33,678 nt of DNA from an uncultured Archangium sp. (GCA_903915665.1 CAIWTT010000166.1:1-33678); one strand, 5' to 3'. Counted from the stretch's first letter, positions 2,313 to 32,034 are shown. Notes: generated by a model from the sequence alone, not told the origin. Translations and numbers: made by a program.

Positions 2313-3584
2313 TCAGAACGGCGAGCGCGGCGGGGCCGAGGTCGGCGCGGGCGGCGGCGAGGGCGCGTTCGCCGCGGCGGTCATGGCCGGCGTGGCGCCC
2401 GACGTGGCGTGCGCGGTCGGCGGCGCGCCCACCGGCGTCGGCGGCCCACCTCCACCGGGGATCTCGCCCCCCTTCGGGTTGTCCGGGTCCGGGGGAATCA
2501 GCCCCAGGTCGGGCGGCGGCACCGGCGGCGCGTCGAAGCGGCAGCCGTGCGAGAAGCAGGGCCCCATGCTGATCATCCGGCCGCCGCCGGGCTGCTTGAC
2601 GAAGCCCAGCACGCCGTCGATGTCCTTCGCGGCCTTGAAGGCGAGGTTGGGCACCAGCGGCAGGTCACCCATCGCGTCTTCGTTCTGCTCGGTGTTGGCC
2701 GTCGGGCCCAGGGCGCCCATCGCCTGCAGCTTGCCCGCGTAGGTCTCGGCCCCGTCGACCCCCGGCCGCTCCTCGGGCACCGGCGACTGCGAGTAGTAGT
2801 AGTGCTCGACGCGCGCGTAGAAGGGGTGCGCTTCGCGCTGCCCGTCGTCCGGGAGAATGGTGGCGAGGTGGTTGAGCGCCCACGGGTCGTGCAGCACGGC
2901 GAAGAAGTCGTCGCTGCGCGTGGTGCCCGACGGCAGGTCCTCGGTCTCGGTCTGCGAGGTGCCCGGCTCGCCTTCGATCTCCGACGGCGAGCTCGCGCCG
3001 CTGCCCTGCGCCCCGAAGACCCACGCGTTCGAGGTGGACGCGCTGCTGGCGTTGCCGTGCACGTCGGTGCCCTCGAACTTCCTGGTGCGCGTCAGGTCCT
3101 GCCCCCACGAGAGGAACTTCTGCACGATGAGGTAGTTCTGCACGCCTAAGCGCGCGGTGCAGCTCAGCAGCCCGCCCCGGTTGAAGCGGTGGTTGTAGCT
3201 CTGCTCCACGTTGCCCAGCCCGGGGTTCACCCCGCACGTCACCTGCTTGCCGCCGCCCATCCAGCACTGGTGCGCGCCCAGCGCCTGGTGGTGCCGGTCG
3301 TCGGCGCAGTCCACCGCGGTGTTGAACGAGTCGTAGGCCGAGCTGTGGTCGCAGAACACCTTGCGGTCGATGGCCTGCACCCGCGCCGCGGCCTCCACCG
3401 GCCTCGACAGCGACGGGAAGTCGAGCGGCGCCGCGTCCCACGCCGGGCTGGTCACCGCCTCCTGCCAGTCGAGGTTGTAGAGCAGCAGGTCGCTCAGGAA
3501 GAGCGTGTAGAGGATCATCGGGACCAGGACGATCATCAGCAGCGCCAGCTCCACCATCGCCGCGCCTCGGGGGGCTCGCCTCAC
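2313..3584 (-). CDS. TadE-like pseudopilin (large, with Pro/Gly-rich C-terminal tail)
   Basis: The GTG start at 3584 gives VRRAPRGAAMVELALLMIVLVPMILYTLF, which matches the TadE N-terminal signature (R-R-x-x-R-G-x-A-A-V-E-F-A-L-hydrophobic stretch). The GTG overlaps the upstream TGA as GTGA at 3581-3584. The protein is 423 aa and ends in a PPVPPPDLGLIPPDPDNPKGGEIPGGGGPPTP tail. Confidence 0.75.
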   Translation of the reverse strand: MRRAPRGAAMVELALLMIVLVPMILYTLFLSDLLLYNLDWQEAVTSPAWDAAPLDFPSLSRPVEAAARVQAIDRKVFCDHSSAYDSFNTAVDCADDRHHQALGAHQCWMGGGKQVTCGVNPGLGNVEQSYNHRFNRGGLLSCTARLGVQNYLIVQKFLSWGQDLTRTRKFEGTDVHGNASSASTSNAWVFGAQGSGASSPSEIEGEPGTSQTETEDLPSGTTRSDDFFAVLHDPWALNHLATILPDDGQREAHPFYARVEHYYYSQSPVPEERPGVDGAETYAGKLQAMGALGPTANTEQNEDAMGDLPLVPNLAFKAAKDIDGVLGFVKQPGGGRMISMGPCFSHGCRFDAPPVPPPDLGLIPPDPDNPKGGEIPGGGGPPTPVGAPPTAHATSGATPAMTAAANAPSPPPAPTSAPPRSPF

Positions 3585-5224
3585 TCTGCCTCCTCGGCCG
3601 TGCAGCCCGACATCTGTCGTTGACCTTCCACCGGGGCCCGCAGCTCCCGCACCAGCGTCGCGCCCTCGACGTCACCGGCGAGCATCAGCACCTCCACCAG
3701 CTCCAGGCAGCGGAAGCGCTCGAGCTTCGCGCGGAAGAACGGGTCGAAGAGGTTGGGCACCGGGACCCGGTCGCTGCCCAGCTCGTGGAAGTAGACCTTG
3801 GCCTTGGCCACCGCCACGCCTTCACCCGGCGCGAGGTGCGCCGTGGCCTTCACGTGCGGCCCCCACTTGAGCGTCACCGTGCCCTCGTCGTTGAGCTGCC
3901 ACGGCCCCTTCTTGCCCGAGCGCAGCAGCCCCAGGTCCTGCTTCACCACGCCCCAGGCGCTGGGCAGGCCGAGATCGTTGTCCTTGAGCGAGAGCGCCAC
4001 CTCGTCGCCCCCCTTGGTGCGGCCCCGCGTGCTGGGGTCGAGGCCGCGGAAGTTGATGAAGCACGACTCGGTGCGCTGGCAGACCTCCTGGCGCTGGATG
4101 CCGCGGAACTGGTCGTGGCGCCCGCTGTGCCCCGGCCCGTGCACGCCCCCCGCCTCGTCCGAGAAGGCGTTGCTCACCAGCGACCCCGAGCCCTTGCCGT
4201 GGCGCCAGCCCACCATCAACCCGCCCGCCGTCTCCGCGCCCACCGACTCGGCCTCGAAGGTGTTTCGCGGGGGCAGGGTGTGGGCCAGCTTGGTCACCCC
4301 GGCCTTGCCGTCGAAGCCCAGGCACACGCTGCCCTCGCCGCCCATGATGCCCAGCAGGTAGGCCGAGCTCGGCTGGAAGTCGGGGTGGCCCACGGCCTCG
4401 CACTGGCCCTTGGCGCAGTACTGCTGGAACGAGCCGCGGGCGGCGTTCGACACGTCTTCGATGATCACGCTGCGCTTGGGCGGCGTCAGGCGCGGCAGCG
4501 TCAGGCCCATCAGCGTGCGGCAGTCGTCGGGCTCCTTCCACCCTTCGACGGCGCACGAGAACTCGGTGCGGTTCACGGCGTGCAGCGCGGGCACGTACTC
4601 GGACCGCGGGGCGTTGCGCTCCTTGAGCACCTTGAGCGTGCCCACGGTGGGCTGGCTGACCTCGGTGGCCACGCGCTCCAGGGTGCGCTTCTGCAGCACG
4701 TGCATCGCCGCGGCGGCCTTGTTCAGCCCGTCGACGGTCTCGTTGAAGGCGGGCTCGGTGCCGATGAGCAGGGTGTCCCACTTCTGGGCCTCGGCCCCGA
4801 AGGCGGCGGAGATCTCCCGCGCCCGGTCGGCGTCGTTGCAGCACGCGTCGCGGTCTTCGGGGGGGCTGCGGCGCCCGTGGCCGCTGCGCTCGCAGCAGGC
4901 GTCTTCCTGGGCCGCGACCTGGAGCATGCCCGCCTGGCTCGAGGCGAGGATGTTCTCGGTCTGCGAGGCGATGGCGTGCCACGCGTGCACCGACATGTTG
5001 GTCACCACCAGGGCCGCGATGGTGCGGTTGGTGTAGACCATCACGTTGAGCCCGCGGGCCTCGATGGTGGCCACCGAGAAGGCCTGCGCGTCGGCCTGCG
5101 ACTGGAGCCGGATGCGCTCGTGGATGGCGCTCGAGATGCTGAAGCTCATGGCCATGGTCAGCGCCATGAAGAGCACCGAGAGCGACGCCAGCGCCAACAC
5201 CTGTCCCCGCCGGGCGTGCTTCAC
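3581..5224 (-). CDS. TadG-like pilus-assembly protein (Tad_N-type N-terminus)
   Basis: The GTG at 5224..5222 overlaps the TGA of the upstream gene as GTGA. The N-terminus VKHARRGQVLALASLSVLFMALTMAMSFSISSAIHERIRLQSQADAQAF resembles the TadE/G-like Tad_N motif (hydrophobic helix then RxxLQxAADA). About 547 aa. The track ORF 3581..5854 has an R/G/P-rich non-coding-like 5' extension, which I trimmed. Confidence 0.7.
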   Translation of the reverse strand: MKHARRGQVLALASLSVLFMALTMAMSFSISSAIHERIRLQSQADAQAFSVATIEARGLNVMVYTNRTIAALVVTNMSVHAWHAIASQTENILASSQAGMLQVAAQEDACCERSGHGRRSPPEDRDACCNDADRAREISAAFGAEAQKWDTLLIGTEPAFNETVDGLNKAAAAMHVLQKRTLERVATEVSQPTVGTLKVLKERNAPRSEYVPALHAVNRTEFSCAVEGWKEPDDCRTLMGLTLPRLTPPKRSVIIEDVSNAARGSFQQYCAKGQCEAVGHPDFQPSSAYLLGIMGGEGSVCLGFDGKAGVTKLAHTLPPRNTFEAESVGAETAGGLMVGWRHGKGSGSLVSNAFSDEAGGVHGPGHSGRHDQFRGIQRQEVCQRTESCFINFRGLDPSTRGRTKGGDEVALSLKDNDLGLPSAWGVVKQDLGLLRSGKKGPWQLNDEGTVTLKWGPHVKATAHLAPGEGVAVAKAKVYFHELGSDRVPVPNLFDPFFRAKLERFRCLELVEVLMLAGDVEGATLVRELRAPVEGQRQMSGCTAEEAE

Positions 5225-6018
5225 GAGCCCTCCTTCTTCCACGGCACCGAGCACAGGTTGGTGTCCGGCAGCTCGAAGCCCTCGAGGTCGGGCCACAGCT
5301 TGGACTGCATGCGCATGCCCCACGAGGCGCGAATGGGGAGGATGTATTCGTGCGCGTCGGCCCGCTCCTGGATGGGGACCTTCTCGATGGTGCGCTTGCC
5401 GCCGTTGGGGTTGAGGCTCTCGCGCACCGTGCCCGGCGTCATGCGCAGCGTGCGCACCGCGTCGTCGTGCTCCACCCCGCGCGCCATCATCCACAGCATG
5501 GCGTTCGCGAAGGGGATGGGCATCCGGTAGTAGAACGTCACCTGCACCTGCAGCCGCGTGACGTTGTAGGTGGCCCACGCGTCGCCCAGCAGCCGCGGGT
5601 CGTCGAAGTCCACGCCCTTGTTGAGGTCGATGCCCGCCGCCGCCGCCTGGGCGCGCAGCCGGGGCAGCGTGGGGTTGCACACCTGCACCACCACGTAGGG
5701 GATGGGCGGTGACTGCCGGTTGTCCTTGATCTTCTCCCACGAGCGCGACCACTCCGTGGGGGTGGTCGCGGGGAACACGCGCTCGATGCCCGCCGCCCCG
5801 CTGCTGGCCATGGGCATCAGCACCGCCAGGGCCGCCGTGTCCATGTCGTTCCACGCCGCGCTGCCGATGGAGCCCGCCCGCGCCGCCTTGTACGCGGCGT
5901 ACTTGGTCATCAACCGCGCCTGGTGCACCAGCGAGAGCTGCAGCGTGCCCAGGACCAGGAACACGAACAGCGGCATCACCAGCGCCGTCTCCACCGCGGC
6001 CTGGCCCCGGCGCCTCAC
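5221..6018 (-). CDS. TadE-like pseudopilin
   Basis: The GTG at 6018..6016 overlaps the upstream TGA (6017..6015) as GTGA. The N-terminus VRRRGQAAVETALVMPLFVFLVLGTLQLSLV is a textbook TadE motif. 265 aa. The track ORF 5221..6693 has a low-complexity 5' extension, which I trimmed. Confidence 0.75.
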   Translation of the reverse strand: MRRRGQAAVETALVMPLFVFLVLGTLQLSLVHQARLMTKYAAYKAARAGSIGSAAWNDMDTAALAVLMPMASSGAAGIERVFPATTPTEWSRSWEKIKDNRQSPPIPYVVVQVCNPTLPRLRAQAAAAGIDLNKGVDFDDPRLLGDAWATYNVTRLQVQVTFYYRMPIPFANAMLWMMARGVEHDDAVRTLRMTPGTVRESLNPNGGKRTIEKVPIQERADAHEYILPIRASWGMRMQSKLWPDLEGFELPDTNLCSVPWKKEGS

Positions 6019-6845
6019 GGGTGCACCTCCCGCGAGATGACCACGTCGACGTCGCCCGGGCCGGACCGGGAGGCGAGCACCGTCTGCTGCGACTTGCCGC
6101 GCGACGCCACCAGCACCTGCAGCCCGTCCACCTGCTCCACGTCCTGCAGCGACCAGCCGGTGTCCGTGAAGTGCGCCCGGTAGAAGGCGAGCACGTCCTC
6201 GGGACTCTGGGCCGGCACCGACAACCCGATGACCTGCACCGCGCGGCCCTCGTCGAGCTGGCGGAACACGCGCGGCGGCGTACCCCGGGGCGGCACCGCC
6301 ACGTCGTCGGGCAGGGCCTCGGGCGGCGCCTGGGTCAGGGCCAGCGGGTCGTTCACCGAGAGGAACACCACCGTCTCGTCGCGTTGCCGCAGGGCCGAGA
6401 CCATGTGCAGCGCCCCGCGCCCCGGGCTGCGCACCGCGTCCGTCTCCAACCACGCCACGTAGCCCGACGACGGCGAGTAGAGGTGGCGCACCGCGGGCCG
6501 CGACAGCAGCCGGAAGTACTCCGCGTAGTAGGCGAGCACCGACTCCACCGGCCACTTCGTGGAGAACCACGCGATGCCCAGCGGCGTGCCCGAAAGGGTG
6601 CTCGAGGAGAAGAGCGCCCGGGCCTCGGCGTCGGGGAACGGGGGCAGCGCGGCCAGCGCCTCGGGGGAAGGCCGCGGCGGCGAGAGCACCCACTTCGCCG
6701 CGCCCGGGGAAGCGCTGAGCACTTCGGCCTGCGCGGCTTCCAGCGACCGGTCGTTCACCGCGCCCAGGGCCGCGCCGAGCACCGCGCCCAGCAGCGCCGC
6801 GCCCCCGAGGACCCTGCCTACGCGACTGGCTCGAGGACGACGCAC
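6015..6845 (-). CDS. membrane-anchored hypothetical protein (first gene of the GTGA-coupled Tad-like block)
   Basis: The GTG start at 6845 is followed by MRRPRASRVGRVLGGAALLGAVLGAALGAV (a signal/TM anchor) and then a non-repetitive soluble domain. The stop is coupled to the next gene through GTGA. High GC3. Confidence 0.6.
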   Translation of the reverse strand: MRRPRASRVGRVLGGAALLGAVLGAALGAVNDRSLEAAQAEVLSASPGAAKWVLSPPRPSPEALAALPPFPDAEARALFSSSTLSGTPLGIAWFSTKWPVESVLAYYAEYFRLLSRPAVRHLYSPSSGYVAWLETDAVRSPGRGALHMVSALRQRDETVVFLSVNDPLALTQAPPEALPDDVAVPPRGTPPRVFRQLDEGRAVQVIGLSVPAQSPEDVLAFYRAHFTDTGWSLQDVEQVDGLQVLVASRGKSQQTVLASRSGPGDVDVVISREVHP

Positions 6846-6895
6846 CGGCCGCGAAGGCTAGCGGATCCGAGCCGCGTTCGGCAGCGCGCTTCTGC

Positions 6896-8656
6896 CTACT
6901 TCGCGTCCTCGCTCACCTGCCGCAGCAGGTGCCGGCTCATGTCGAGGCAGGGGTGCTCCTTGCCGAAGTGCGCCGGGACGCCCTGCAAAATTTTCCGCGC
7001 CTTCTTGAGGCTGGGGTACCGCCGACTCATTTCCTGCTCGTACTGCACGAGGATGGCGGTGCACTTCTGGTCGAGCTCGGGCCGGAGGTCGCGCATGCGC
7101 GTCAGGGCGAACTGCTGCAGGGCGGCGTCGTGGTCGGCCGTGGCCTCGAGCACCAGCCAGGCCTCGCGGTAGCTCTTCCACGCGCGGAACAGGTTGATGG
7201 CGCCGATCTTCTTCAGCTCGTAGAGCTGGGTGGCCTGGTCGATGGAGTCCTGCGCCCGGGTGCTGGCCTGCTGGCTGGTGAGCTCCGGCAGGGGAATCAG
7301 CTCCACCCACAGCCCGGCGATGCGCCAGGTCTCGTCGTCGTCGCCCTGGCGCACGTTCTCGAAGGTGAGCTGGTTGTTGGCGCCCACCTTGAGCAGCCCC
7401 GAGGGCAACACATGCTCCAGCTCCACGTCACTCTGCGCGGTGTCGGCGGGCACGAAGGCCACCGGCGCGCCGTTGAGCTCGATGTGCACCTCGTTCTGCC
7501 CGCAGTCGTGGGCGCGAAAGTGCAGCACGCCCACCAGCCGGGTCGCGGCGAAGGGCGTGAAGAAGAAGGCCTTCGACTCGGCGACCTGCACCTCGGCCCC
7601 CGGGCCCGCGCCGAACGAGAGCGCCAGCGCGTCGCCGTTGGGCACCAGCTCGTCGGGCATGCGGGGCCCGGTCGGAGCCGCCGTCGGTTGCTGCACCCAC
7701 ACCACCGCGGTGAAGGTGAGCATCAGGACCACGGCGAGCGCGGCCTTCAACGCCGCTGGCACCGACGCCCACCACAGCTGCGCGCGGCCGGCGCTCGTCT
7801 TCTGCAGCGCCCGCCGCTCGCGGGCCACGTCGGCGGCCAGCAGCCGGTTGCTCTCTTCGGTCAGCGACCGCGTGGGCTGCTCGGCCAGCAGGTCCTTGGC
7901 GGCTGACGACTTCGCGAGCGCCTCGCCCGGCAGCAACTCCCGGGTCGCCGCGTCTTCGAACTTCCCGTCCCACGCGCTGGCGCCGGCGGGGGCCGGGCCC
8001 TGGAGCACCGCGCGGTTGACGAGCTCCACCGTGGGGACGTCGCTGAAGCTCTCGCTGGTGGCGACCGGGGTGGGGGGCTTCACCAGGCCCCGGTTGACGA
8101 GCTCCACCGTGGGTACGTCGCTGAAGCTCTCGCTGGTGGCCGCCGGCGCCGGCGCGGCCTTGTGCGTGCCGCTGGGCCGGGGCGGGCTGAAGGCCGGCCG
8201 CAGCACCGTCGACGCGTCGAGACCGGTGGCCGCGCCCTGTGCAGGCGGAGGGGGAGGCGGGGTGAAGGCAGGCCGGAGGGTCGTCGCCTGGTCGAGCACG
8301 CTGGGGGCGGGCCGCGCCGACTCGTCGAGCGTCGACGCGGGGTCGACCCCGGTGGTGAAGAGCACGGTGACCTGGCCGATGGCGAGGCGATCTCCCGGCT
8401 TGAGCTCGGCCCGCGCGGCGAGCCGGCCCCCGTTGAGCCGCGTGCCCGCCGTGCTCTGCAGGTCTTCGACGAAGAAGCGCCCGGCCTCGTGGAAGATGCG
8501 GGCGTGCACGCGCGAGGCGAGCGCGTCGTTGATCACCACGTCGTTCTCCGGCGCCCGCCCCAGCCGCGCCGCGCCGCTCTCGAAGGTGGCCATGACGCTC
8601 GCGCCGTCTTTGGTGACGGTGAGGGTGAAGGCGGTCTTCGCGCGCGGGGGAGCCAT
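6896..8656 (-). CDS. FHA-domain membrane protein (N-terminal FHA, central TM helix, C-terminal periplasmic domain)
   Basis: The start is an ATG at 8656. FHA motifs are present: ARLGRAPENDVVINDALASRVHARIFHEAGRFFVEDLQSTAGTRLNG...KPGDRLAIGQVTVLF. There is a TM helix LWWASVPAALKAALAVVLMLTFTAVVWV and an internal 26-aa tandem repeat. Confidence 0.85.
   Translation of the reverse strand: MAPPRAKTAFTLTVTKDGASVMATFESGAARLGRAPENDVVINDALASRVHARIFHEAGRFFVEDLQSTAGTRLNGGRLAARAELKPGDRLAIGQVTVLFTTGVDPASTLDESARPAPSVLDQATTLRPAFTPPPPPPAQGAATGLDASTVLRPAFSPPRPSGTHKAAPAPAATSESFSDVPTVELVNRGLVKPPTPVATSESFSDVPTVELVNRAVLQGPAPAGASAWDGKFEDAATRELLPGEALAKSSAAKDLLAEQPTRSLTEESNRLLAADVARERRALQKTSAGRAQLWWASVPAALKAALAVVLMLTFTAVVWVQQPTAAPTGPRMPDELVPNGDALALSFGAGPGAEVQVAESKAFFFTPFAATRLVGVLHFRAHDCGQNEVHIELNGAPVAFVPADTAQSDVELEHVLPSGLLKVGANNQLTFENVRQGDDDETWRIAGLWVELIPLPELTSQQASTRAQDSIDQATQLYELKKIGAINLFRAWKSYREAWLVLEATADHDAALQQFALTRMRDLRPELDQKCTAILVQYEQEMSRRYPSLKKARKILQGVPAHFGKEHPCLDMSRHLLRQVSEDAK
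8013..8140. repeat. 78-nt tandem direct repeat (one full copy plus a partial second copy) inside the FHA gene
   Basis: The block cggttgacgagctccaccgtggg(g/t)acgtcgctgaagctctcgctggtggc occurs at 8013 and again at 8091, encoding ATSESFSDVPTVELVNR twice in the FHA protein. The period of 78 nt is a multiple of 3. Confidence 0.8.
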
Positions 8657-8762
8657 GAAGCGCGCGAGAGTATGTCACCCGTTTCGGGGCATGGGGGCTC
8701 CAACACGGTGCGCCGTGGGCCAGGGTGGTGCAGCCTCACGCGCCGTCCCGCCGCCTTGCGCG

Positions 8763-8778
8763 TGGCACGTCTCTGGCT
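8763..8778 (+). promoter_or_regulatory. candidate sigma-54 (-24/-12) promoter element upstream of the vault-protein gene
   Basis: TGGCACGtctcTGGCT matches the consensus TGGCACG-N4-TTGCW at 15 of 16 positions with correct GG/GC spacing. It lies only about 13 nt before the ATG at 8791, so the geometry is tight and the call is speculative. Confidence 0.2.
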
Positions 8779-8790
8779 CTGCGCCTCCCC

Positions 8791-10905
8791 ATGGCCGACC
8801 GGGACAGCAGCAGGGAACGCGACATCCTCGTGGCATCGAACGAGTACGCCTACGTCCAGGACCTCACCAAGGGCGACATCGTGCTCTACGTGGGCCCCAC
8901 GAAGATCTCGCTGTCGAACACCGAGCGCCTCGTGGAGCTCAAGCTCGACCGCTTCACCCCCATGCGCGGCGAAGAGGGCAACGGCGTCCAGCCCTTCGTC
9001 ACCGCGTCCAGCGCGCAGTACCTGGTGCTCGAGAACCCCGCGAAGGACCCGGCCATGCGGCCGGTCAAGGGCAACAACTCGGCGGTGGAGCTGCGCGTGG
9101 GGCGCCGCGTGGTGGTGCCCGGCCCGGCCACCTTTCCCCTCTGGCCCGGCCAGAAGGCGCGCGTCGTCGCGGGCCACGAGCTCTCCGAAGACCAGTACCT
9201 GCGCCTGCGCGTCTACGACGTGGTCGACGGGGAGAGCGCCGCCATCGGCACCGAGCGCATCATCAAGGGCAGCGAGGTGAGCTTCTTCATTCCCCCCACC
9301 GGCCTCGAGGTGCTCCCCGACGAGAAGGGCAGCTACGTGCGCAACGCCGTCACCCTGCTCGACGGCCAGTACTGCGTGCTCCGCGGGCCGAAGGGGCGCA
9401 GGCGCTACGAGCGCGGGCCGGCCGTGGTCTTCCCCGAGGCGTGGGAAGAGTTCCTGGTGAAGAACGGCACCCGGGTGTGCGCCGCCTGGCCCCTCAAGCG
9501 CGACCGCGGGCTCCACGTGCGCGTGCTCCAGGGCTTCGAGGCCCAGGAGGGCGAGGCCGTGCCGAAGGGCCGCTACGAGCCGGGCCAGGAGCTCTTCGTG
9601 CACGCCCGCGAGGGCTACTTCTTCCCCTCCGAGGCCCTGGAGGTGCTGGGCGAGGTGGCCGCGGTGCAGCTCGCCGCGAAGGAGGCGGTCTACCTGCGCG
9701 ACCTCCACACCGGCGCGGTGCGCACCGTGGAGGGCCCGCTGGCGCTGCTGCCCGACCCCACCCAGGTCGAGCGCGTCAGCCGGGTGCTCGACCCCGAGAC
9801 GGCGAGGCGCTGGGGCCTCTCTCGCGCGGACGCCTCGCGGGCGCCCACGGTGGTGGTGCCCCCCGGCGAGGCGGTGCTGGTGACCGGCACCCAGACCCGC
9901 GAGGTGCTGCGCGGCCCGGCGGTGCGCGTGCTGGCCTTCGACGAGTCGCTCGAGGCGCTGGCCCTCTCCACCGGCACGCCCAAGCGCGACGAGGTGCTGC
10001 TGACCACCTGCTTCCTGCGCGTGGAGGGGAACAAGGTCAGCGACGTGGTGCGGGTGCGCACCGCGGACCACGTGGAGCTCGAGGTGCGCCTCTCGTACCG
10101 GGTGGGCTTCGTGCACCGCGACGGCGTCGACGACGCGCGCTGGTTCTCGGTGTCGAACTACGTGGGCCTGCTGTGCGACCACCTGGGGAGCATCGTGCGC
10201 GCCGCCGTGCGGCTGACGCCCATCGAGCGCTTCCACGCGGCCTCGGCGGAGATTCTGCGCACCGCGCTGCTGGGCGAGAAGAAGGCCGAGAAGCGCAGCG
10301 GCCGCGAGTTCGAAGAGAACGGCATGGCGCTGTCCGACGTAGAGGTGCTCGACGTGCGCATCCTCGACGAGGCCGTGGAGGCGTTGCTCACCGACGCGCA
10401 GCGCACCGCCATCACCGCCGAGGTGGCGCGCAAGGGCGAGCACCTGCGCCTGCAGACCGAGGAGACCCGCGAGGCCGTGGCCCGCGCCATCTGGGCCGCG
10501 CAGCGCGAGACGCTCGGGGTGCAGAACGAGCTCGAGCTGGCTCGCCGCACGCTGCACCTCACCCAGGTGGAGGCCCATGGCGAGGCCGTGCGTCTCGAGG
10601 CCCTGGGTCGCGCCCGCGCCGAGGCCGAGGCGCTGGCCATCACCTCCAGCGCCGAGGGCCTGGCGAAGGAACGGCGCGTGGCCCTCGAAACGCAGCGCCT
10701 GGTGGCGCGCACCGCCGCCTTCAAGGAACAGATGGCCGCGCTCCACCCCGAACTGGTGGCGACCCTCAAGTCCCTGGGCAACCAGCAGTTCGCCGCGTCG
10801 CTCACCCGGAACCTCTCGCCCCTCGCCATCCTGGGTGGAGAGTCGGTGTCGGACGTGGCGCAGCGGCTTCTCGCCGGCCTGCCGGGGATGCGCGAGGAGA
10901 AGTGA
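8791..10905 (+). CDS. major vault protein (MVP) homolog
   Basis: The start is an ATG at 8791 (the track ORF begins at GTG 8725). The N-terminal MVP-repeat signature is present: [37 protein letters not shown] vs human MVP [38 protein letters not shown], and [12 protein letters not shown] vs QDPFPLYPGEV. The shoulder and cap-helix regions align strongly: [133 protein letters not shown] and [72 protein letters not shown]. A coiled-coil follows. 704 aa. Confidence 0.85.
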   Translation: [704 protein letters not shown]

Positions 10906-11968: not shown

Positions 11969-12346
11969 ATGCGCACTTCGCGCTGGTTGCTCGGTTCCCT
12001 GGCGTTGTTGGGTTGTGGACTCTCCAGCTTCTCCGGGGCAGGCGACGGCGCTGGCAGCAGCGTCGTCCCCGCCAACCCCGGCGCCAGCGGCACCCTCACC
12101 GCCGGCGCGTGGGACGACTCGCTGAACTTCCCGTCGCAGCGAAGCGGCGTCTGCGCTGCGGCTCGTGCAGGAGGGCGTCGGCCTCAGCGCGGGCGAGGGC
12201 AGGCTGAATGGACCACGAGCCGCCCCCGCCCCCGCGCCGGCTTCGAGGTGAGCACCGCGCTCAACCTGCTGCGGCCGCTGCTCGACGCCCTGCCTCAGCC
12301 GATACGGGGCGAGGCCGACGTCGACGAGAAGCTCACCCTGGAGTGA
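11969..12346 (+). pseudogene. lipoprotein-signal ORF that loses coding character after about 55 codons (probable disrupted lipoprotein gene)
   Basis: ATG at 11969. MRTSRWLLGSLALLGCGLSS is a good lipoprotein signal with an LLGC lipobox. GC3 is high for about 55 codons, then falls and the translation becomes R/G-rich. The 3' part carries a 33-nt exact copy of REC-domain codons from the gene at 19298. Confidence 0.3.
12229..12261. repeat. 33-nt exact dispersed repeat (copy 1 of 2)
   Basis: cccgcgccggcttcgaggtgagcaccgcgctca is identical to 19371-19403, which lies inside the REC-EAL gene and encodes RAGFEVSTAL. Confidence 0.85.
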
Positions 12347-15272
12347 TCGGAGCCAACGGGAGCGTCACGGTCGCGGTCGTTCCCTGTCCGACGACGCTGT
12401 GCACCTCGAGACCGCCGCCCAGGCCCTGCGCGATCCCCAGTGCCACCGGGAGCCCCAGGCCCTTGCCTCTTCCCACGCCGCGGGTGGTGAAGAAGGGATC
12501 GAAGATCCTCGGCATGATCTCGGGGGCGATGCCGGTGCCGGTGTCGACGACGCGCACCTTGACCACCCGCCCACTGACCTCGGCGCTGATTCGCACCGAG
12601 TGGGCCTGCGCCTGGCCCGCATTGACCAGCAGGCAGCCGAAGAGCTGGGCCAGCTCGGCCTCGCTGCCGGTCACGGGGGGCAGCGTCGCAGGCAGCTCCA
12701 CCGACAGTGCGGCGTCGGCGGCGCGGGCGTGGCGCGCGACCTGCGCCGCGCGGTCCAGCGCCGCGGCGAGCTCGCACGTCCCCTCGGAGGTGTGCTGGCC
12801 CAGGGCGAAGGACCGGAGATCAGCCACGAGGTCACGGACGCGCACCGTGCCGGCAGCGGCATCAGCGAGCGCCTCCTTCAGCTCGGCCAGGGAGAGGGGC
12901 GGGGCCGCGCTGAGCTGCTCCTGCGCGAAGCTGACGTTCGCGAGGATGATGGCCAGCGGGTTGTTCATCTCGTGGGCCATGCCCGCGGCCAGGGTGCCCA
13001 GCGAGGCCACCCGCTCGGCCCGCGCGGTGCGCACGTGCAGGTCCCTGAGCTGCTGCTCCGCCAGCTCGCGCGCGGTGACGTCCGTGGACATGCCGCACAA
13101 ACCGGTGACCCGGTCGTGGTCGTCACGCAGGGGGAACTTGATGGAGAGGAGCGAGGCCGCTCCCAGCTTCTCCAACCGCTCCACCACGGAGCCCGCCTCC
13201 ATCACCTCGAGGTCGACACTTCGAAAGGCTGCCGCGGTCGGGCCCGGAAACAGCTCCTGGTCGGTCTTGCCGAGCACGTGCTCGCGCTTCAAGCCGGTCG
13301 CGGCTTCCCAGCGGGCGTTGACCAGCCGGTACCGGCCGTCTCGCTCCTTCGCGTAGATGAGCGCGCCGCTGTTCTCGACGAGCTCGGACAGGAATCGCTG
13401 GCTCTGGCGCAGGGCCTCCTGCGTGCGCTTGCGCTCGCTGATGTCGAGGTGGGTCCCGGCGGCGCGCAGCGGCGTGCCGTCGGCGGCGCGTTGCATCACC
13501 ACGCCCGAGTCGAGGATCCAGACCCAGTGCCCGTCCTTGTGCCGGAGCCGGTGCTCGCACGCGTACGAGGCGGTCTCGCCCCGCAGGTGCGCGCCGAGCA
13601 CCGCGTTCGTCTCGGCCTGGTCATCGGGGTGCACCAGGTTCTCCCAGCTCGACACGTTCGGCGCGACCTCGGCCAGCGTGAAGCCCAGCATCTCCGCCCA
13701 GCGCTCGTTGAAGGTGACCCGCCCCGAGGGAACGTCCCAGTCCCAGAGCCCGAGCTGACCCCCTCGCAGCGCCAGGCGAAGCCTCGACTCGCTCTCCTCG
13801 ATCTTCGCCTCCGCGTCCCGATGGCTGGTGATGTCGACGCACGAGCCGATGTAGCCGACGAAGGTCTCCTGCTCGTCATGCTGGGGAGTCCCTGTGTCCA
13901 CCAGCCAGCGCCAGGCGCCATCGTGGCGCCGGAGCCGGTACTCCATGGTGAAGGGCACGCGCCGTTCGAACGAGCCCACGTAGGTGTCGAGGCACCGCTG
14001 CAGATCGTCCGGGTGAACGCCCTCGGTCCAGCCGTTGCCCAGCTCCTGCGCCATCGTGCGGCCGGTGAAGTCGAGCCAGGGCTTGTTGAACCAAGAGCAG
14101 CGCTTGTCCAGGCCCGAGGTCCAGATGAGCACGGGCGCGCTGTCAGCCATCGACCGGAAGCGCAGCTCGCTCTCCGAGAGCGCCGCGTGCGCCTGGAGCA
14201 GCTCGCGGTTCATCTCGCGCGCGGCCTCCACGGCGTGGTCCCGGCGGCGGAACAGCACCCAGACCAGGTAAGCGATGAGGAGGCTCAAGGCGGCGTCGCC
14301 CAGGGCCACCAGCGCGGGCCTGCGGCTCGCCAGCCGGGCGGCGAGCGGCGAACCGATCCGGAAGGAGAGGGTCCAGGGGTGACCGGAGACCGTGATGGTG
14401 CGCTGGGTCTCGAGCAGCGGGGCAACCCCGTCGGCGCCGGTGGACTCGTACAGCACCGCGGCGCTCGTCGAATCGCCGTCGTGGATCCGCATGAGCAACT
14501 CGTCGCTCCGCGCCCCGAGAGTGCCCGCGATGAGGTCGCCCATCCGGAAGGGCATGTACGCCCAGCCCAGCAGTTGCTCGCGCCGTTGGCTGACGTCGCT
14601 GGGCGCTGGGCCGCTCCGGTACACCGGCAGGTACATCAGGACGCCGGCCTGCACCGCGGTCTGCGTCTCCTGCACCAGCGTGACCTTGCCGGACAGCACC
14701 GCCCGGCCCTCGTCACGGGCCCTCGCCATGGCCTCCCGGCGCACGGGCTCCGAGTACATGTCGTAGCCGATGGCCTTGAGGTTCCTCCCGGAGTTCGGCT
14801 CGAGGAAGGTGATCGACGTGTAGAACTCGCGCGGCCCGGGGGGCCGGACCTGGTAGCCGGGCACCGCCTCCTGCTGCCCGCGGACGTGACCGTCGAGCGC
14901 AGCCGCGGGGACGACGAGCGCGAAGCCCACGCCCTGGATGCCCGGGTAGTGCTCCTCGAGGCGCAGCGCGGCGACGTAGTCGTGGAACGCGTGGCGGTCC
15001 ACGCGCTCCGAAGCGGAGAACAGGGCCGCCACCCCGCGGAGCACCTGCTCATGGGCCGCCATGCGCGTCGCCACGTGCTCCTCGGCGTCCTGCACGCTGA
15101 ACTCGAAGTTGGTCCGCAGCCGGTCTGCTTCGCCGGCATCGGAACGGCTCCACGCGCCCCACGTCACGCCCAGCCCCACGAAGAGCACCAGCCCCGAAAC
15201 GAGCACGGCGAGCCGACGCCCCGCAGGGCGCGCGAGCCTGGCCTGCGTCAGCGTGGATGTGGAGTCCTGCAC
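12333..15272 (-). CDS. sensor histidine kinase: N-terminal TM + CHASE sensor, three PAS/PAC domains, HisKA and HATPase_c
   Basis: GTG start at 15272, with the TM helix LAVLVSGLVLFVGLGVTWGAW. The CHASE-like segment reads EFYTSITFLEPNSGRNLKAIGYDMYSEPVRREAMARARDEGRAVLSGKVTLVQE. The PAS/PAC blocks contain WRWLVDTG, GHWVWILDSG and GLCGMSTDVT. The H-box is MAHEMNNPLAII, and the G-boxes are VVDTGTGI and GLGLPVALGIAQGLGG. Confidence 0.9.
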   Translation of the reverse strand: MQDSTSTLTQARLARPAGRRLAVLVSGLVLFVGLGVTWGAWSRSDAGEADRLRTNFEFSVQDAEEHVATRMAAHEQVLRGVAALFSASERVDRHAFHDYVAALRLEEHYPGIQGVGFALVVPAAALDGHVRGQQEAVPGYQVRPPGPREFYTSITFLEPNSGRNLKAIGYDMYSEPVRREAMARARDEGRAVLSGKVTLVQETQTAVQAGVLMYLPVYRSGPAPSDVSQRREQLLGWAYMPFRMGDLIAGTLGARSDELLMRIHDGDSTSAAVLYESTGADGVAPLLETQRTITVSGHPWTLSFRIGSPLAARLASRRPALVALGDAALSLLIAYLVWVLFRRRDHAVEAAREMNRELLQAHAALSESELRFRSMADSAPVLIWTSGLDKRCSWFNKPWLDFTGRTMAQELGNGWTEGVHPDDLQRCLDTYVGSFERRVPFTMEYRLRRHDGAWRWLVDTGTPQHDEQETFVGYIGSCVDITSHRDAEAKIEESESRLRLALRGGQLGLWDWDVPSGRVTFNERWAEMLGFTLAEVAPNVSSWENLVHPDDQAETNAVLGAHLRGETASYACEHRLRHKDGHWVWILDSGVVMQRAADGTPLRAAGTHLDISERKRTQEALRQSQRFLSELVENSGALIYAKERDGRYRLVNARWEAATGLKREHVLGKTDQELFPGPTAAAFRSVDLEVMEAGSVVERLEKLGAASLLSIKFPLRDDHDRVTGLCGMSTDVTARELAEQQLRDLHVRTARAERVASLGTLAAGMAHEMNNPLAIILANVSFAQEQLSAAPPLSLAELKEALADAAAGTVRVRDLVADLRSFALGQHTSEGTCELAAALDRAAQVARHARAADAALSVELPATLPPVTGSEAELAQLFGCLLVNAGQAQAHSVRISAEVSGRVVKVRVVDTGTGIAPEIMPRIFDPFFTTRGVGRGKGLGLPVALGIAQGLGGGLEVHSVVGQGTTATVTLPLAPITPG

Positions 15273-15694: not shown

Positions 15695-17530
15695 CTACAT
15701 CGACATGATGTACGAGTTGCCGGTGTCGATTTCGTACCGCACGAGCCCTGCCAGAATGACGAAGTACAAGACGTTGGGGTTGGTGGGGTCGAGCGCCACC
15801 GCGCCGTAGCCATTGTAGTTGTTGTTATCGAGCGCGCCCTTCGCGCCCTGCAGCTGCGAATACTTCCCGGGCAACACGGGCTGCGTCACCCCAATCGAGA
15901 AGAGGCCCTGCGCGGTGTTGCCGTTGGCGAGGCTGTGGACGGAGCACTTGCGCGCCGCGGACGTGCCGCACGCGAAGAGGAGCTGTCGGTTCTCGTCGAC
16001 GAAGAAGTTGGTCTCGCCGATGCCGCCAATGGTGGAGATGGTCGAGAAGGCCGTCCGGTTGCCGGTGGTGTCGTTGATGGCCAGCAGCGTGGAGTTCGTG
16101 AACGCATAGACCACGCCGCCGCGGTGGAGCAGCCCGCTGATGGTGCCGTACTGCGGCGTCAGCCCGGTACCGATGTTGGGCAGCGGCTGGGTGGTGTTGT
16201 TCGACGCCCACCGCGAGACGTGCGTGCAGGTGGTGCCGTCCGCGCTGATGCGCATCACCCCAACGCCGTCAGCCTTCCAGCCGACGAAGAAGCTGCCGTC
16301 GGTGGCCAGCGCGAAGGCGCGCTCGTCGGGCTGCACCGGGAGGAAGCCGCTGGCATACGACGTGCTCACCCGACCATCGAAGCACTGGCCGTAGGGGTAG
16401 CTGGGAGTCGAGGCCTCCGCGAGCGACTGTCGCCGCCACACCAGCGTGCGCGCGCCGGTCTGCGGGTCGACCCGGGTGATCTCCACGTTGTTCAGCGTGT
16501 CGGAGCCCATCGTGTAGATCTTCCCATCCGTGCCCAGCTTGGCGTCGACCAGGAACGGCAACGCTTCGCCCTGCGGCGTGTAGCCGCTGCCCACGTCGAC
16601 GCGACCGCTGGTCGGGTCCAGATACGAACCCGAGACCACGCGACGGTTCCCGTTGGTGAGGTTGAACGCGTAGATGGCGCCGGGCTTGAGGGTCGCCACG
16701 TTCGGGTTGGTGTAGTGCACCACCGCGTACAGCTCGCCCTGGTGAATGAAGCCGCCGCCCCACTTGGCGAGGTTGATGCCGTACGCGTTCGGCCCCACGC
16801 CGCGGCGCAGGCCCGCGGTCCACGCGTCGGATCCAGGGCGACATTCCTGCATCAGGGTGTTGGCGCGGTTGCACCGGCAATCCATCTCCAGGCTCGTGGT
16901 CGCCGCCATGTACAGGTCGTCGTCGCAGGCCAGCGGGTAGAACGCGCTCATGCGCTGCGAGGGATCCATCGACGAGGCGCAGAACTCGTTGGCCGTGGGG
17001 TTGATGCCTGCGTCGGCGTTGAAGGTGTACCAGCAGCGCTCACCGATGAGGCAGGTCTGCACCACCTCGGGCAACAGCATGCCGCAGCTGTTGACGAGCC
17101 CCAGGGTCGTCTCCGCCGGGCCGCTGACGGCCCCCGCGGTGTGACACTTGAGCTGAGGATTGGAGCCCAACGGACACACGCAGCCGACCCCTGCATCAGC
17201 CAACACGGTGCAGGGCGCCGTCGACGCACAGTTGCCGACGAGCGTGCGCCCACCGCAGCTGTCCTGGTTCACGATGGCGAGCGGGTTCGTGGCGGAACAC
17301 ACCCGCGTGACGCCGCCGTCCGGAAGACAGGTCGCTCCGCCGCCGCCCGTCCCTCCGCCGGTGGTGCCGCCGCCCGTCCCTCCGCCGGTGGTGCCGCCGC
17401 CCGTCCCTCCGCCCGCGGTGCCGCCGCCCGTCTCTCCGCCCGCGGTGCCGCCGCCCGCCCCTCCGTCATTGGCCGGTACGGGAGAGCTGCAGGCCGCCAG
17501 AACGGAGACCAGGACAAGGATCGAGCGCAT
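15695..17530 (-). CDS. secreted lipoprotein with Gly-rich repeat linker, Cys-rich module and beta-propeller-like domain
   Basis: ATG at 17530, with the signal MRSILVLVSVLAAC and an LAAC lipobox. The track begins at GTG 17539. The linker is (GGGTxGGGT)n, followed by about 20 Cys in the first 200 mature residues and then a long beta-rich domain. High GC3. Confidence 0.85.
   Translation of the reverse strand: MRSILVLVSVLAACSSPVPANDGGAGGGTAGGETGGGTAGGGTGGGTTGGGTGGGTTGGGTGGGGATCLPDGGVTRVCSATNPLAIVNQDSCGGRTLVGNCASTAPCTVLADAGVGCVCPLGSNPQLKCHTAGAVSGPAETTLGLVNSCGMLLPEVVQTCLIGERCWYTFNADAGINPTANEFCASSMDPSQRMSAFYPLACDDDLYMAATTSLEMDCRCNRANTLMQECRPGSDAWTAGLRRGVGPNAYGINLAKWGGGFIHQGELYAVVHYTNPNVATLKPGAIYAFNLTNGNRRVVSGSYLDPTSGRVDVGSGYTPQGEALPFLVDAKLGTDGKIYTMGSDTLNNVEITRVDPQTGARTLVWRRQSLAEASTPSYPYGQCFDGRVSTSYASGFLPVQPDERAFALATDGSFFVGWKADGVGVMRISADGTTCTHVSRWASNNTTQPLPNIGTGLTPQYGTISGLLHRGGVVYAFTNSTLLAINDTTGNRTAFSTISTIGGIGETNFFVDENRQLLFACGTSAARKCSVHSLANGNTAQGLFSIGVTQPVLPGKYSQLQGAKGALDNNNYNGYGAVALDPTNPNVLYFVILAGLVRYEIDTGNSYIMSM
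17338..17460. repeat. 30-nt tandem repeat x4 (imperfect) encoding the GGGT(T/A)GGGTG linker
   Basis: The unit gccgccgcccgtccctccgccggtggtgcc is repeated with point changes. Confidence 0.75.
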
Positions 17531-17661
17531 TTGGGACACGGGGACTCTTGGGAGGTTGGGACCGTGCGGGGGAGCGCGGTGTGGGAACGCTACCGGCGCA
17601 CCGTGGCGACTTCACCAACTTCTTCGCAGAACATCCCGGCCCGTCTCGCCGGCCCTTCTCG

Positions 17662-18255
17662 TCACGCGCGCGGCTTCCAGAACCGCGCAAAGTTCCCACC
17701 AGGCGCGGACACGATCTCCTCGGCGCGAGCGCGATCGCGCGCAGCTCCCTGGTGGTCGCCCAACAGCTCGCTGCACTCGGCGCGCAACCCGAGTGCCTCG
17801 GGGTGCTCCTGAAACGCGAGTAGCGCCTCGACGATGGCTCGTGCTTCGTCGAGACGTCCGACCATCGTCAAGATGCGCGCGCGTAGCAGGCGGGAAGCCG
17901 GCTCACCGCTCTCCTCGGCCAGGGCCGAGTCGACGTCTTTCATGGCATCGTCGAGTCGTCCGAGGGCGACGAAGCTCTTGGCCCGCAAGTTGAGCACGCG
18001 GCTCCTGTGCCCTTCGACTTCCAGGGGGAAAGCCTCCGTGAAGAGCTGAATCGCGGCGGCGTGCTCGTTCTCGGCACCCTTCAAGATCCCGAGCATGATC
18101 ACAGGTTCCGGCAAGCTCGGTGCACGCGCCCTCACGGTCTCGTACAACGAGCGCGCGCCGGCAATGTCGCCTTCGCGCTTCAGGCCGCCTGCGCGACGCA
18201 TCAACGCCGCAAGCTCCTCTTGATGGGGCGCCAGCTCGGCATCCTTCTTGACCAT
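17662..18255 (-). CDS. TPR-repeat protein
   Basis: ATG at 18255 (MVKKDAELAPHQ...). TPR-like helical repeats follow (GDIAGARSLYETV..., AAIQLFTEAF..., LGRLDDAMKDVDSAL..., GRLDEARAIVEALL). The track ORF extends to 18360 through R/G-rich sequence, which I trimmed. Confidence 0.7.
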   Translation of the reverse strand: MVKKDAELAPHQEELAALMRRAGGLKREGDIAGARSLYETVRARAPSLPEPVIMLGILKGAENEHAAAIQLFTEAFPLEVEGHRSRVLNLRAKSFVALGRLDDAMKDVDSALAEESGEPASRLLRARILTMVGRLDEARAIVEALLAFQEHPEALGLRAECSELLGDHQGAARDRARAEEIVSAPGGNFARFWKPRA

Positions 18256-18595
18256 CGGACGCGAGCCAGTAGCACATCCATCCCCCAACGGCCTCCGCGC
18301 ACGCCCTCGCCCCCGCTCCACCCCCTGTCCCGGAGCCACCCGTCGCCGCACCGCCGTCATCGCCGCTCAAGCGTGGCGGTGGTCAACGAAGGTCTGCTGG
18401 TCGAGCGCGAGCCGGCCTGTTCGTTTCCAGTGGTGGGGACCAACCCCACTCGAGGTCCTGGAGTTCCTGACACTTCGTCACCCGGCGGCTGCGGCGCAGC
18501 GCCACCGTGGCGGACCGCACGGCCCAGGCCCGCCCATCCCCTCGGGATCAGGAGGCAGTCCCCGCAGGCACGCCGCCTGCTCACGCCAGCCCCGG

Positions 18596-24802: not shown

Positions 24803-28951
<4,149 letters not shown>

Positions 28952-31983: not shown

Positions 31984-32034
31984 CCAGCTTCGTAGCGTCG
32001 CCCCCGGGGAGGTCAAGCGCCGTCTGGCTCGACC

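Follow-up and report, generated by a model that had tools for sequence, protein, structure and literature searches.

Which machine is served by a gene cluster that encodes three Tad-type minor pilins and an FHA-domain membrane protein, in a stretch of DNA where the Tad machine itself is not found? We examined this question for a locus in a window of 33,678 nucleotides (33.7 kb) from an uncultured Archangium sp., the whole of which was analysed. Comparison with the Tip3 operon of Myxococcus xanthus, at the level of sequence, indicates that the cluster is probably a Tip3-type kilM-kilN-kilL minor-pilin operon of a Kil (Tad-like) pilus, from an uncultured member of the Myxococcaceae/Archangiaceae. 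Rather than a new kind of machine, the cluster is a variant of one reported in 2025.

Gene organisation of the cluster

Codon-position GC profiles reveal five consecutive co-directional coding frames at 8656..2313 on the minus strand, with GC3 values of 0.93–0.98, which bears out the five co-directional genes of the original prediction. The first gene, g1 (8656..6896), encodes a 586-aa protein with an FHA domain, a transmembrane (TM) segment and a periplasmic domain, and g2 (6845..6015) encodes a bitopic membrane protein of 276 aa that resembles MXAN_1149 of M. xanthus. These are followed by genes for three minor pilins: a short TadE-type protein resembling KilM3 (g3, 6018..5221; 265 aa), a large TadG-type protein resembling KilN3 (g4, 5224..3581; 547 aa) and an extended TadE-type protein resembling KilL3 (g5, 3584..2313; 423 aa). 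A plain ORF listing masks g3 and g4 within longer, spurious ORFs (5221..6693 and 3581..5854, respectively), from which they are separated by frame switches in the GC profile at around 5200 and 5950. The g2/g3, g3/g4 and g4/g5 junctions are 4-nt GTGA start/stop overlaps, each preceded by a GGAGG-like motif. Translational coupling, originally proposed for the whole operon, thus holds for g2–g5 but not for g1 and g2, which are separated by a gap of 50 nt and hence are not overlap-coupled. Identical proteins are encoded on six independent contigs. The gene set is found again in more than 50 loci, so that the grouping is not due to chance.

To survey the window for Tad core genes, ORFs with coding-type GC3 and extra candidate ORFs were scanned for domains. 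No T2SSF, secretin, RcpC/CpaB, peptidase_A24 or Flp ORF was detected in the 33.7 kb, confirming that neither a Tad core gene nor a Flp pilin gene is present in the window. None of the genes that mark a canonical tad/cpa locus, encoding the CpaF/TadA ATPase, TadB/C, CpaC, CpaB, prepilin peptidase and Flp, adjoins the cluster. The sole T2SSE-family signal comes from the decayed remnant of a PilT-family ATPase gene (approximately 18598–19184), which is of the T4aP type and not CpaF.

The minor pilins and the relationship to M. xanthus Tip3

Using genetics, Herrou et al. (2025, Nat Commun; PMC12075869) showed that killing of prey by the Kil pilus depends on Tip3, which they modelled as the pilus cap. 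In the M. xanthus operon (kilM3-kilN3-kilL3-MXAN_1149-kilO, MXAN_1146-1150), which is located far from the kil core clusters, mxan_1146, mxan_1147 and mxan_1148 encode KilM3, KilN3 and KilL3, and mxan_1150 encodes KilO, a 59-aa Flp protein that is required for Tip3 (PMC12075869). As a reference for BLASTP with the window proteins we used an M. xanthus locus (L056) in which the genes in M-N-L order encode proteins of 260, 525 and 370 aa; its 525-aa and 285-aa proteins fall into the 90% clusters of the DK1622 proteins named MXAN_1147 and MXAN_1149, respectively. A 59-aa Flp ORF is present two genes 3′ of KilL3 in this locus, a position likewise stated elsewhere (bioRxiv 10.64898/2026.08.20.745974).

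The g3 product has a TadE domain (PF07811, 4.9e-13, 49.4 bits, gathering threshold 22.9), as was originally called, and shares 41% identity with KilM3/MXAN_1146 over its full length (2e-52). Its prepilin-like motif, RRG/QAAVE, and that of g5, PRG/AAMVE, both correspond to the G/XXXXE class-III cleavage motif. The g4 product, which is 29% identical to KilN3/MXAN_1147 over 542 aa (E 1e-57), instead has the N-terminus RRG/QVLAL, with Leu and no Glu at position +5; KilN3 of M. xanthus (RG/QSIVL) likewise has Leu. Each of the three proteins contains a single N-terminal hydrophobic segment. The Tad_N assignment of g4 is upheld by its family, in which 18 of 22 members match PF13400 (Tad/TadG_N; best 5.4e-7), but not by g4 itself, which has no Pfam match at E≤0.1; PF13400 is also present in the precomputed annotation of two g4 homologs. 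The AF2 model of g4 (pLDDT 80) contains long helices at residues 4–113, 122–155 and 157–190 together with a beta scaffold, matching the published architecture of KilN (PMC12075869), and a monomer model of g3 (pLDDT 82.9) similarly combines a long N-terminal helix with a beta domain. No pilin was matched significantly in fold searches, and no PDB fold match was obtained for g4.

The g5 product is 31% identical to KilL3/MXAN_1148 over 373 aa (E 2e-41). Its TadE match is below the Pfam cut-off (0.029, 14.9 bits) and within the family 9 of 36 proteins match at E≤0.1, so that the TadE call fails in Pfam but stands in profile–profile comparison, where the N-terminus of the g5 family aligns with the g3/TadE family over 42 columns (hhalign, 95.9% probability, E 5.6e-9). 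Two regions on the minus strand are unique to g5: an acidic, Ser/Thr-containing insert (nt 2901–3014) and the predicted Pro/Gly-rich tail (nt 2316–2537), which is in frame, comprises 74 aa with 45% Pro+Gly and stands in place of the conserved C-terminus of the family (ASGW..D.R). A frameshift artefact was rejected as the origin of this tail, since no alternative frame restores the conserved C-terminus and the in-frame GC3 is 0.87–1.0.

Taken with g2 (see below), the window therefore encodes full-length homologs of all three M. xanthus Tip3 pilins and of MXAN_1149 (MXAN_1146-1149), although identity is only 27–41%. The two clusters share the gene order of short TadE-like, large TadG-like and extended TadE-like pilin, the G/XXXXE motif in M and L with Leu at +5 in N, overlapping gene junctions and a location orphaned from Kil/Tad core genes. 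They differ in the gene located directly upstream, which encodes the FHA-TM-periplasmic protein in the window and a PatA_N/TPR protein in M. xanthus, in the position of the MXAN_1149-like gene, which precedes kilM in the window and follows kilL in M. xanthus, and in kilO, which has no counterpart in the window. This homology, combined with the genetics and models of Tip3 (PMC12075869), supports the original prediction of an orphan minor-pilin or tip module for a Tad machine encoded elsewhere, and with it the original comparison with the Kil apparatus of predatory myxobacteria.

The trio also resembles TadE, TadF and TadG (CpaJ/K/L) of canonical tad/cpa systems: the N-termini of g3 and g5 are of the TadE type, that of the g4 family is of the TadG_N type, and the shared predicted role is that of a priming or tip complex of a Flp pilus. 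In contrast to the canonical genes, the window genes lie outside any tad locus, and their products have globular domains specific to myxobacteria as well as additional partners. Apart from the N-terminus of the TadG_N type seen in its family, no likeness of g4 to canonical TadG was detected.

Several observations run against the Tip3 assignment: neither a kilO-like Flp gene nor a Cys-rich gene is found in the window, g2 has a changed position upstream of the pilin genes, the conserved C-terminal motif is lost from g5, g4 itself falls under Pfam thresholds and the fold searches are without a significant pilin match.

An MXAN_1149-like membrane protein accompanies the trio

The g2 product has an N-terminal TM segment (aa 9–31) followed by a periplasmic domain and is 27.5% identical over 280 aa (BLASTP, E 5e-17) to the 285-aa M. 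xanthus protein that clusters with MXAN_1149. Homologs are encoded in 50 related loci, where the gene is positioned 3′ of the KilL-like gene, whereas in the window it is located 5′ of the kilM-like g3. Precomputed annotation assigns g2 to PF27226 (AF_1845); in our searches neither g2 nor 34 homologs matched Pfam at E≤0.1, and a profile of the g2 family matched no PDB sequence. We therefore reject the earlier suggestion that the 6015..6845 product is CpaB/RcpC-like, since no SAF/RcpC match was found either in Pfam, with g2 and the 34 homologs, or in the PDB profile search. An uncharacterised MXAN_1149-like membrane protein is thus present in every Tip3-type cluster examined.

Tip3-type clusters in uncultured Myxococcota

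The description of interchangeable Kil tips dates only from 2025 and is confined to cultured Myxococcales. Our locus set comprises 50 distinct genome loci and further contigs that carry the module, all from Myxococcota MAGs or metagenomes. No member of the family was seen outside Myxococcota, the sources being cultured strains and MAGs of the Myxococcaceae/Archangiaceae group. The FHA-linked, Tip3-like clusters of Myxococcaceae/Archangiaceae MAGs (L001, L003, L005, L007-L052), of which the literature searched contains no description, encode the same five protein families as the window, and the FHA proteins, including their C-terminal domain, share 31–47% identity with g1. In the related loci the module order is (FHA)-M-N-L-1149like-(Cys-rich)-Flp, the Cys-rich protein having 72–87 aa, whereas in the window the 1149-like gene comes before the pilin genes and the last two genes are missing. 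An in-cluster protein of 56–79 aa, a Flp prepilin of the KilO type that combines a basic leader with the motif RG/QAMVEY, is encoded in 46 related loci. Neither six-frame motif scans for small G/XXXXE[YF] ORFs nor tblastn with the Flp proteins of the family located a KilO-type Flp in the window, and tblastn with the Cys-rich proteins of the family detected no small Cys-rich gene there. Many of the MAG clusters have a PilT/PilU ATPase pair 4–6 kb upstream, whereas the window contains only the pilT remnant, 10 kb away. No Tad core genes were found within 10 kb of the cluster in five related contexts examined or in the window. In several MAGs the cluster is present twice, and one or both of the FHA and Flp genes are missing from the second copy (for example, L006 versus L046). 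The window and approximately 50 loci thus extend the Tip3 type into a large uncultured clade, in which the FHA-TM protein is tightly linked to it.

The FHA protein encoded by g1

As predicted, g1 encodes an FHA-domain bitopic membrane protein. The FHA domain (aa 31–94, nt 8375–8566, minus strand; PF00498, 6.4e-17, 62.2 bits) also matches Yop-YscD_cpl (PF16697, 1e-12, 48.6 bits, cut-off 33.2), both families being above cut-off, and FHA domains in the PDB match with E-values down to 2.4e-15. The phosphothreonine-binding residues G33, R34, S48, R49, H51 and N75 are invariant in 32 g1 orthologs. A Pro-rich linker with internal duplications, a single central TM segment (aa 294–324, nt 7685–7777, minus strand) and a conserved periplasmic domain of approximately 260 aa (aa 325–586) complete the protein. 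This C-terminal domain matched no Pfam family and no PDB sequence, and neither a periplasmic ring-building motif nor a TagH-type domain was detected in g1. With its cytoplasmic FHA-type domain, single TM and periplasmic domain, g1 resembles SctD/YscD/PrgH of type III secretion systems, TagH/Fha of type VI secretion systems and MXAN_4649 of kil cluster II, the genes for which are likewise linked to an envelope-spanning machine; the difference seen from the T3SS and T6SS proteins is that the corresponding periplasmic features were not detected. Kil clusters are FHA-rich, the FHA/PrgH-like MXAN_4649 being one example.

Orthologs of g1 that include the C-terminal domain adjoin the pilin trio in 40 rows of our locus table, corresponding to approximately 38 distinct loci of uncultured Myxococcota, where the FHA gene is either upstream and co-directional or convergent just 3′ of the Flp gene. 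A word-indexed homolog search with g1 returned one true full-length relative and missed the 44%-identical orthologs found by tblastn; its result is therefore uninformative on the distribution of g1. The FHA gene is missing from all three cultured-strain Tip3 loci examined, so that g1 is tied to tip function by gene neighbourhood only, and it appears to be a lineage-specific addition to the tip cluster. This absence speaks against a part for g1 in tip function, as does the lack of a kinase gene within the 33.7 kb window.

Proposed function and alternative explanations

By homology to Tip3 (PMC12075869), we propose the following course of events. The products of g3, g4 and g5 are made as inner-membrane prepilins with one N-terminal hydrophobic helix each, as their motifs and hydrophobic segments show. 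A prepilin peptidase encoded elsewhere would process the trio, the α1N helices of which would bundle into a heterotrimeric spearhead. On a Kil/Tad machine that is encoded outside the window, this spearhead may then prime assembly of a Flp filament and come to lie at the pilus tip, with the C-terminal domain of g4 exposed to the target cell, while a KilO-type Flp adapter would be supplied from another locus. From co-occurrence, the most likely role of g2 is that of a periplasmic factor, anchored in the membrane, that assembles or holds the trimer. The FHA domain of g1 would bind phosphothreonine, carried either by a substrate of a Ser/Thr kinase or by a basal-body protein of the Kil machine, and the periplasmic domain of g1 would make contact with the tip module. 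Tip loading would in this way be coupled to phospho-signalling, which is suspected to operate in the FHA-rich Kil machine.

A stronger form of this proposal, for which we see only a slim but appreciable chance, is that a phospho-switch acting through g1 determines the choice of tip for the killing pilus in the uncultured clade of approximately 38 loci; the partner recognised by the periplasmic domain would be either the tip trimer in the membrane or the MXAN_1149-like factor, and the FHA domain would read Ser/Thr phosphorylation. If correct, this would provide a mechanism for prey-dependent tip choice, which Herrou et al. demonstrated genetically and left unexplained (PMC12075869). Gating of tip loading by g1 would offer a testable link from Ser/Thr phospho-signalling to tip selection in contact-dependent predation; if g1 has no such role, the block is another divergent Tip3 operon.

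Since Tip-resembling TadE/F/G complexes are present in non-predatory bacteria and variant Tips may have an alternative function (PMC12075869), the same hardware might cap a Tad/Flp pilus for adhesion, surface sensing or biofilm formation and not for prey killing. The C-terminal domain of g4, only 29% identical to KilN3, is the exposed and variable part, and the relatives in the FHA-linked clade all come from uncultured MAGs or metagenomes. We nevertheless consider this unlikely, given that four genes are full-length orthologs of a predation-linked operon and that the Myxococcaceae/Archangiaceae strains and MAGs in which the family was seen, all Myxococcota, are a group of predators.

It is more doubtful still that the block is a rearranged secondary copy of Tip3 heading for loss, its Flp adapter and Cys-rich gene gone and its KilL C-terminus damaged. 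The atypical order, the missing kilO and Cys-rich genes, the exchange of the ASGW..D.R C-terminus of g5 for a low-complexity tail, the clearly decayed pilT-family gene nearby and the incomplete second copies in two-copy MAGs (L006 versus L046) would fit such decay. On the other hand, all five ORFs are intact with high GC3 through the g5 tail, the GTGA overlaps and Shine–Dalgarno-like motifs are retained and identical proteins occur on the six independent contigs. Moreover, one M. xanthus adapter, KilK, serves three Tips in trans (PMC12075869), so that the lack of a local Flp gene is not disabling.

That the TadE/TadG folds have been co-opted for an envelope structure independent of a Tad/Flp pilus machine, as was also raised originally, would accord with the lack of Tad core and Flp genes in the window and with conserved partners, g1 and g2, of no assigned function, but is very improbable because the cluster itself includes a canonical Flp prepilin gene in 46 related loci and, by genetic evidence, the orthologs in M. 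xanthus work through the Kil pilus (PMC12075869).

Neighbouring genes

A vault-protein gene adjoining the cluster was considered as a component of the system and rejected, as none of the related loci contains an equivalent. Another neighbouring gene encodes a cNMP-binding protein.

Identification of the pilin block as a Tip3 family member

In Myxococcus xanthus, the Kil pilus, a Tad-like prey-killing apparatus, draws on four sets of minor pilins, each encoded by one of the paralogous kilM-kilN-kilL 'Tip' clusters. Three of these clusters sit apart from the kil core, and the Tip3 cluster (mxan_1146-1148) includes kilO (mxan_1150), encoding a 59-aa Flp adapter (Herrou et al., 2025, PMC12075869). 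According to a 2026 preprint, kilO and kilL3 belong to the same operon and are two genes apart (bioRxiv 10.64898/2026.08.20.745974). A profile search with the family of g3, the first of the three pilin genes under study, found proteins of cultured Myxococcus, Corallococcus, Pyxidicoccus and Archangium. The M. xanthus locus encodes, in order, a TadE protein (260 aa) and proteins of 525, 370, 285 and 59 aa. Since MXAN_1147 and MXAN_1149 (DK1622) are named in the 90% clusters of the 525-aa and 285-aa proteins, respectively, this locus is Tip3. In BLASTP the 260-aa protein is the counterpart of g3 (41%, 2e-52), the 525-aa protein that of g4 (29% over 542 aa, 1e-57), the 370-aa protein that of g5 (31%, 2e-41) and the 285-aa protein that of g2 (27.5%, 5e-17). 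At the sequence level the block is thus shown to be orthologous to Tip3, and by sequence and gene order it is a Tip3 family member. This orthology supports the central reading of the original prediction, an orphan tip module for a Tad-like machine encoded elsewhere.

Gene models and operon layout

At a G+C content of ~71%, the window yields mechanical ORF lists full of spurious frames. Codon-position GC profiles delineate five genes in a row on the minus strand, whose GC3 is 0.93-0.98: g1 (8656..6896, 586 aa), g2 (6845..6015, 276 aa), g3 (6018..5221, 265 aa), g4 (5224..3581, 547 aa) and g5 (3584..2313, 423 aa). Longer artefactual ORFs mask g3 and g4, whose true starts were set by frame switches together with family N-terminal alignments. 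Exact copies of these proteins are also present in ENA (ERZ1426856), NCBI and Logan records, and a 93.7 kb contig carries them. GTGA overlaps at g2/g3, g3/g4 and g4/g5, each behind a GGAGG-like motif, show that g2 to g5 are translationally coupled; the coupled operon had been predicted to span all five genes, but g1 and g2 are separated by 50 nt. A convergent gene for a stand-alone cNMP-binding protein (1857-2312, +) abuts g5, and a vault-protein-like gene is divergent from g1 across 68 nt.

All three pilins carry prepilin-type N-termini. The predicted TadE label was obtained directly for g3 (Pfam, 4.9e-13), whereas the Tad_N and TadE labels of g4 and g5 hold at family level only. No Pfam domain was matched by g4 or g2; PF13400 (Tad/TadG_N) is matched by 18 of 22 g4 homologs. 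The TadE score of g5 is only 0.029, under the cut-off, and E<=0.1 is reached by 9 of its 36 relatives, but in profile-profile comparison the g5 family N-terminus aligns with the g3/TadE family (95.9% probability, E 5.6e-9). The +5 residue of the KilN-like g4 is Leu instead of Glu, as in M. xanthus KilN3. A CpaB/RcpC-like identity, which had been suggested for g2, found no supporting match in Pfam or PDB profile searches.

Absence of a Tad core and a pilT remnant

As predicted, the window holds no Tad core or Flp gene: domain scans and a search for Flp ORFs detected no T2SSF, secretin, RcpC, prepilin peptidase or Flp ORF in the rest of the window. The sole T2SSE signal (18729-19184, +) was rejected as a CpaF-type ATPase, since it belongs to a truncated, frameshifted PilT-family remnant (~18598-19184, +), in which the N-terminus occupies one frame before a frameshift or deletion, the region around Walker B carries an internal deletion and the C-terminal third is gone. 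Many related MAG loci have an intact PilT/PilU pair 4-6 kb upstream of the FHA gene (e.g. L001:1220-3788), each scoring ~435 bits against TIGR01420 and one having a 145-aa N-terminal extension. This recurrence indicates that the neighbourhood is conserved and that the ATPase was lost in the window. Directly downstream of the remnant is a response-regulator-EAL (c-di-GMP phosphodiesterase) gene (19298-20446, +), and 17662-18360 (-) encodes a TPR protein.

Related loci and lineage-specific features

Scanning genomes with the g4 family identified 50 loci, every one of them from a Myxococcaceae, Archangiaceae or 'Archangium sp.' MAG, and 157 cluster representatives reached E<=1e-30 when the g4 profile was searched exhaustively with HMMER. 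Across scan and look-up loci, tblastn synteny gives (FHA)-KilM-KilN-KilL-MXAN_1149-like-(Cys-rich, 72-87 aa)-Flp as the canonical order. At 46 loci an Flp prepilin is encoded that has a basic leader and carries the RG/QAMVEY motif, which links the module with an Flp filament and leaves the alternative proposal, that the pilin folds serve a different envelope structure, unsupported.

Orthologs of g1, including its C-terminal domain, adjoin the cluster in 40 locus-table rows (~38 distinct loci), either co-directional upstream or convergent directly after the Flp gene. The FHA gene was not found at three cultured-strain loci (M. xanthus, Archangium lipolyticum and strain JPH2), where the six-gene core is present. 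When KilN3-like proteins are placed in a neighbour-joining tree, sequences from cultured strains are the outgroup, the FHA-linked state spans most of the MAG clade and the window clusters with two related loci, L002 and L046. Several MAGs have two copies, of which one has the FHA gene and the other lacks it.

Compared with canonical loci, the window has its MXAN_1149-like gene between kilM and the FHA gene and lacks both the Cys-rich and the Flp gene. An acidic insert is private to g5, and a Pro/Gly-rich tail of 74 aa, which is in frame, substitutes for the conserved C-terminus of this protein. Relative to the M. xanthus Tip3 operon, the correspondence fails in one feature, a local kilO, and a lineage-specific FHA partner is added. 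This partner is unmentioned in the literature searched; PMC12075869 contains none of the terms 'FHA', 'kinase' and '1149'. Since M. xanthus Tip3 requires KilO, its absence is a real gap. A remotely encoded adapter is nevertheless plausible for this Tip3-like set by analogy with KilK, a single adapter that serves three Tips in trans in M. xanthus (PMC12075869).

Between the MXAN_1149-like and Flp genes, many Tip3-like clusters encode a small Cys-rich protein that resembles a secreted protein or a lipoprotein (72-87 aa; 6-8 Cys in CxxxC-type spacing; e.g. L001:13606-13845, L005:10332-10556 and L058:14319-14537); this gene is absent from both the window and the M. xanthus locus. Downstream of canonical clusters is a conserved run (e.g. 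L001:14042-19551, L003:10703-13382) encoding a 236-248 aa protein, often an ImpL63-like membrane protein of 551-558 aa, and a YcaO/TfuA pair, while upstream there is an Abhydrolase_2 gene; these may reflect clade-level synteny rather than functional linkage.

A putative phospho-signalling partner

The prediction that g1 is an FHA-domain bitopic membrane protein was borne out: its FHA domain is genuine (PF00498, 6.4e-17; PF16697, 1e-12), and the protein has a single central TM and a C-terminal domain of 260 aa. The pThr-pocket residues, R34 and S48 among them, are invariant in 32 orthologs, and T125, within a nearly invariant S-S-T-x-D-E motif of the linker, is a candidate phospho-site. This motif and Kil basal-body proteins are candidate ligands of the FHA domain. 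We propose that g3, g4 and g5 would assemble into the trimer that primes and tips a Kil/Tad-like pilus with its core encoded elsewhere, that g2 would be a membrane-anchored assembly factor and that g1 would couple tip use to Ser/Thr phospho-signalling. Such a role for g1 fits the FHA-rich Kil core, which includes the FHA-fused ATPase KilF, the FHA-TPR protein KilD and the FHA/PrgH-like MXAN_4649. No Ser/Thr kinase or phosphatase gene able to feed the FHA domain is present in the window.

The cytoplasmic linker of g1 contains two internal duplications (8012-8140 and 8180-8296), in which ATSESFSDVPTVELVNR and LD[QA][AS]T[TV]LRPAF[TS]PP each occur twice; the latter resembles the conserved DPNATxLKPP motif of the family. 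The duplications may provide repeated Thr-containing docking or phospho-sites.

Other genes in the window

The divergent neighbour of g1 (8725-10905, +) encodes a 726-aa major-vault-protein homolog (MVP_shoulder, 1.3e-29; Vault_3, 3.5e-6, slightly under its cut-off). Bacterial MVP homologs, including myxobacterial ones, have been reported (bioRxiv 10.1101/872010). As no related Tip3 locus has a counterpart, we place this gene outside the module. Minus-strand genes encode an R2K-type ATP-grasp protein (903-1826), a CHASE-PAS-PAS-PAS histidine kinase (12333-15272), a 1001-aa pentapeptide-repeat protein (29011-32016) and a 614-aa protein with no family match (15695-17539), in which a 27-bp x4.7 tandem repeat (17339-17465) encodes GGTxGGG units after a lipoprotein-like signal peptide. 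A single 1382-aa ORF (24803-28951, -) fuses a type IA topoisomerase (Toprim and Topoisom_bac, 7.8e-105) to a RecQ-type helicase (DEAD, Helicase_C, RecQ_Zn_bind and HRDC), and the linker between the two parts, where GC3 dips, contains a 78-bp tandem repeat (26808-26967, 2.1 copies, 91% match).
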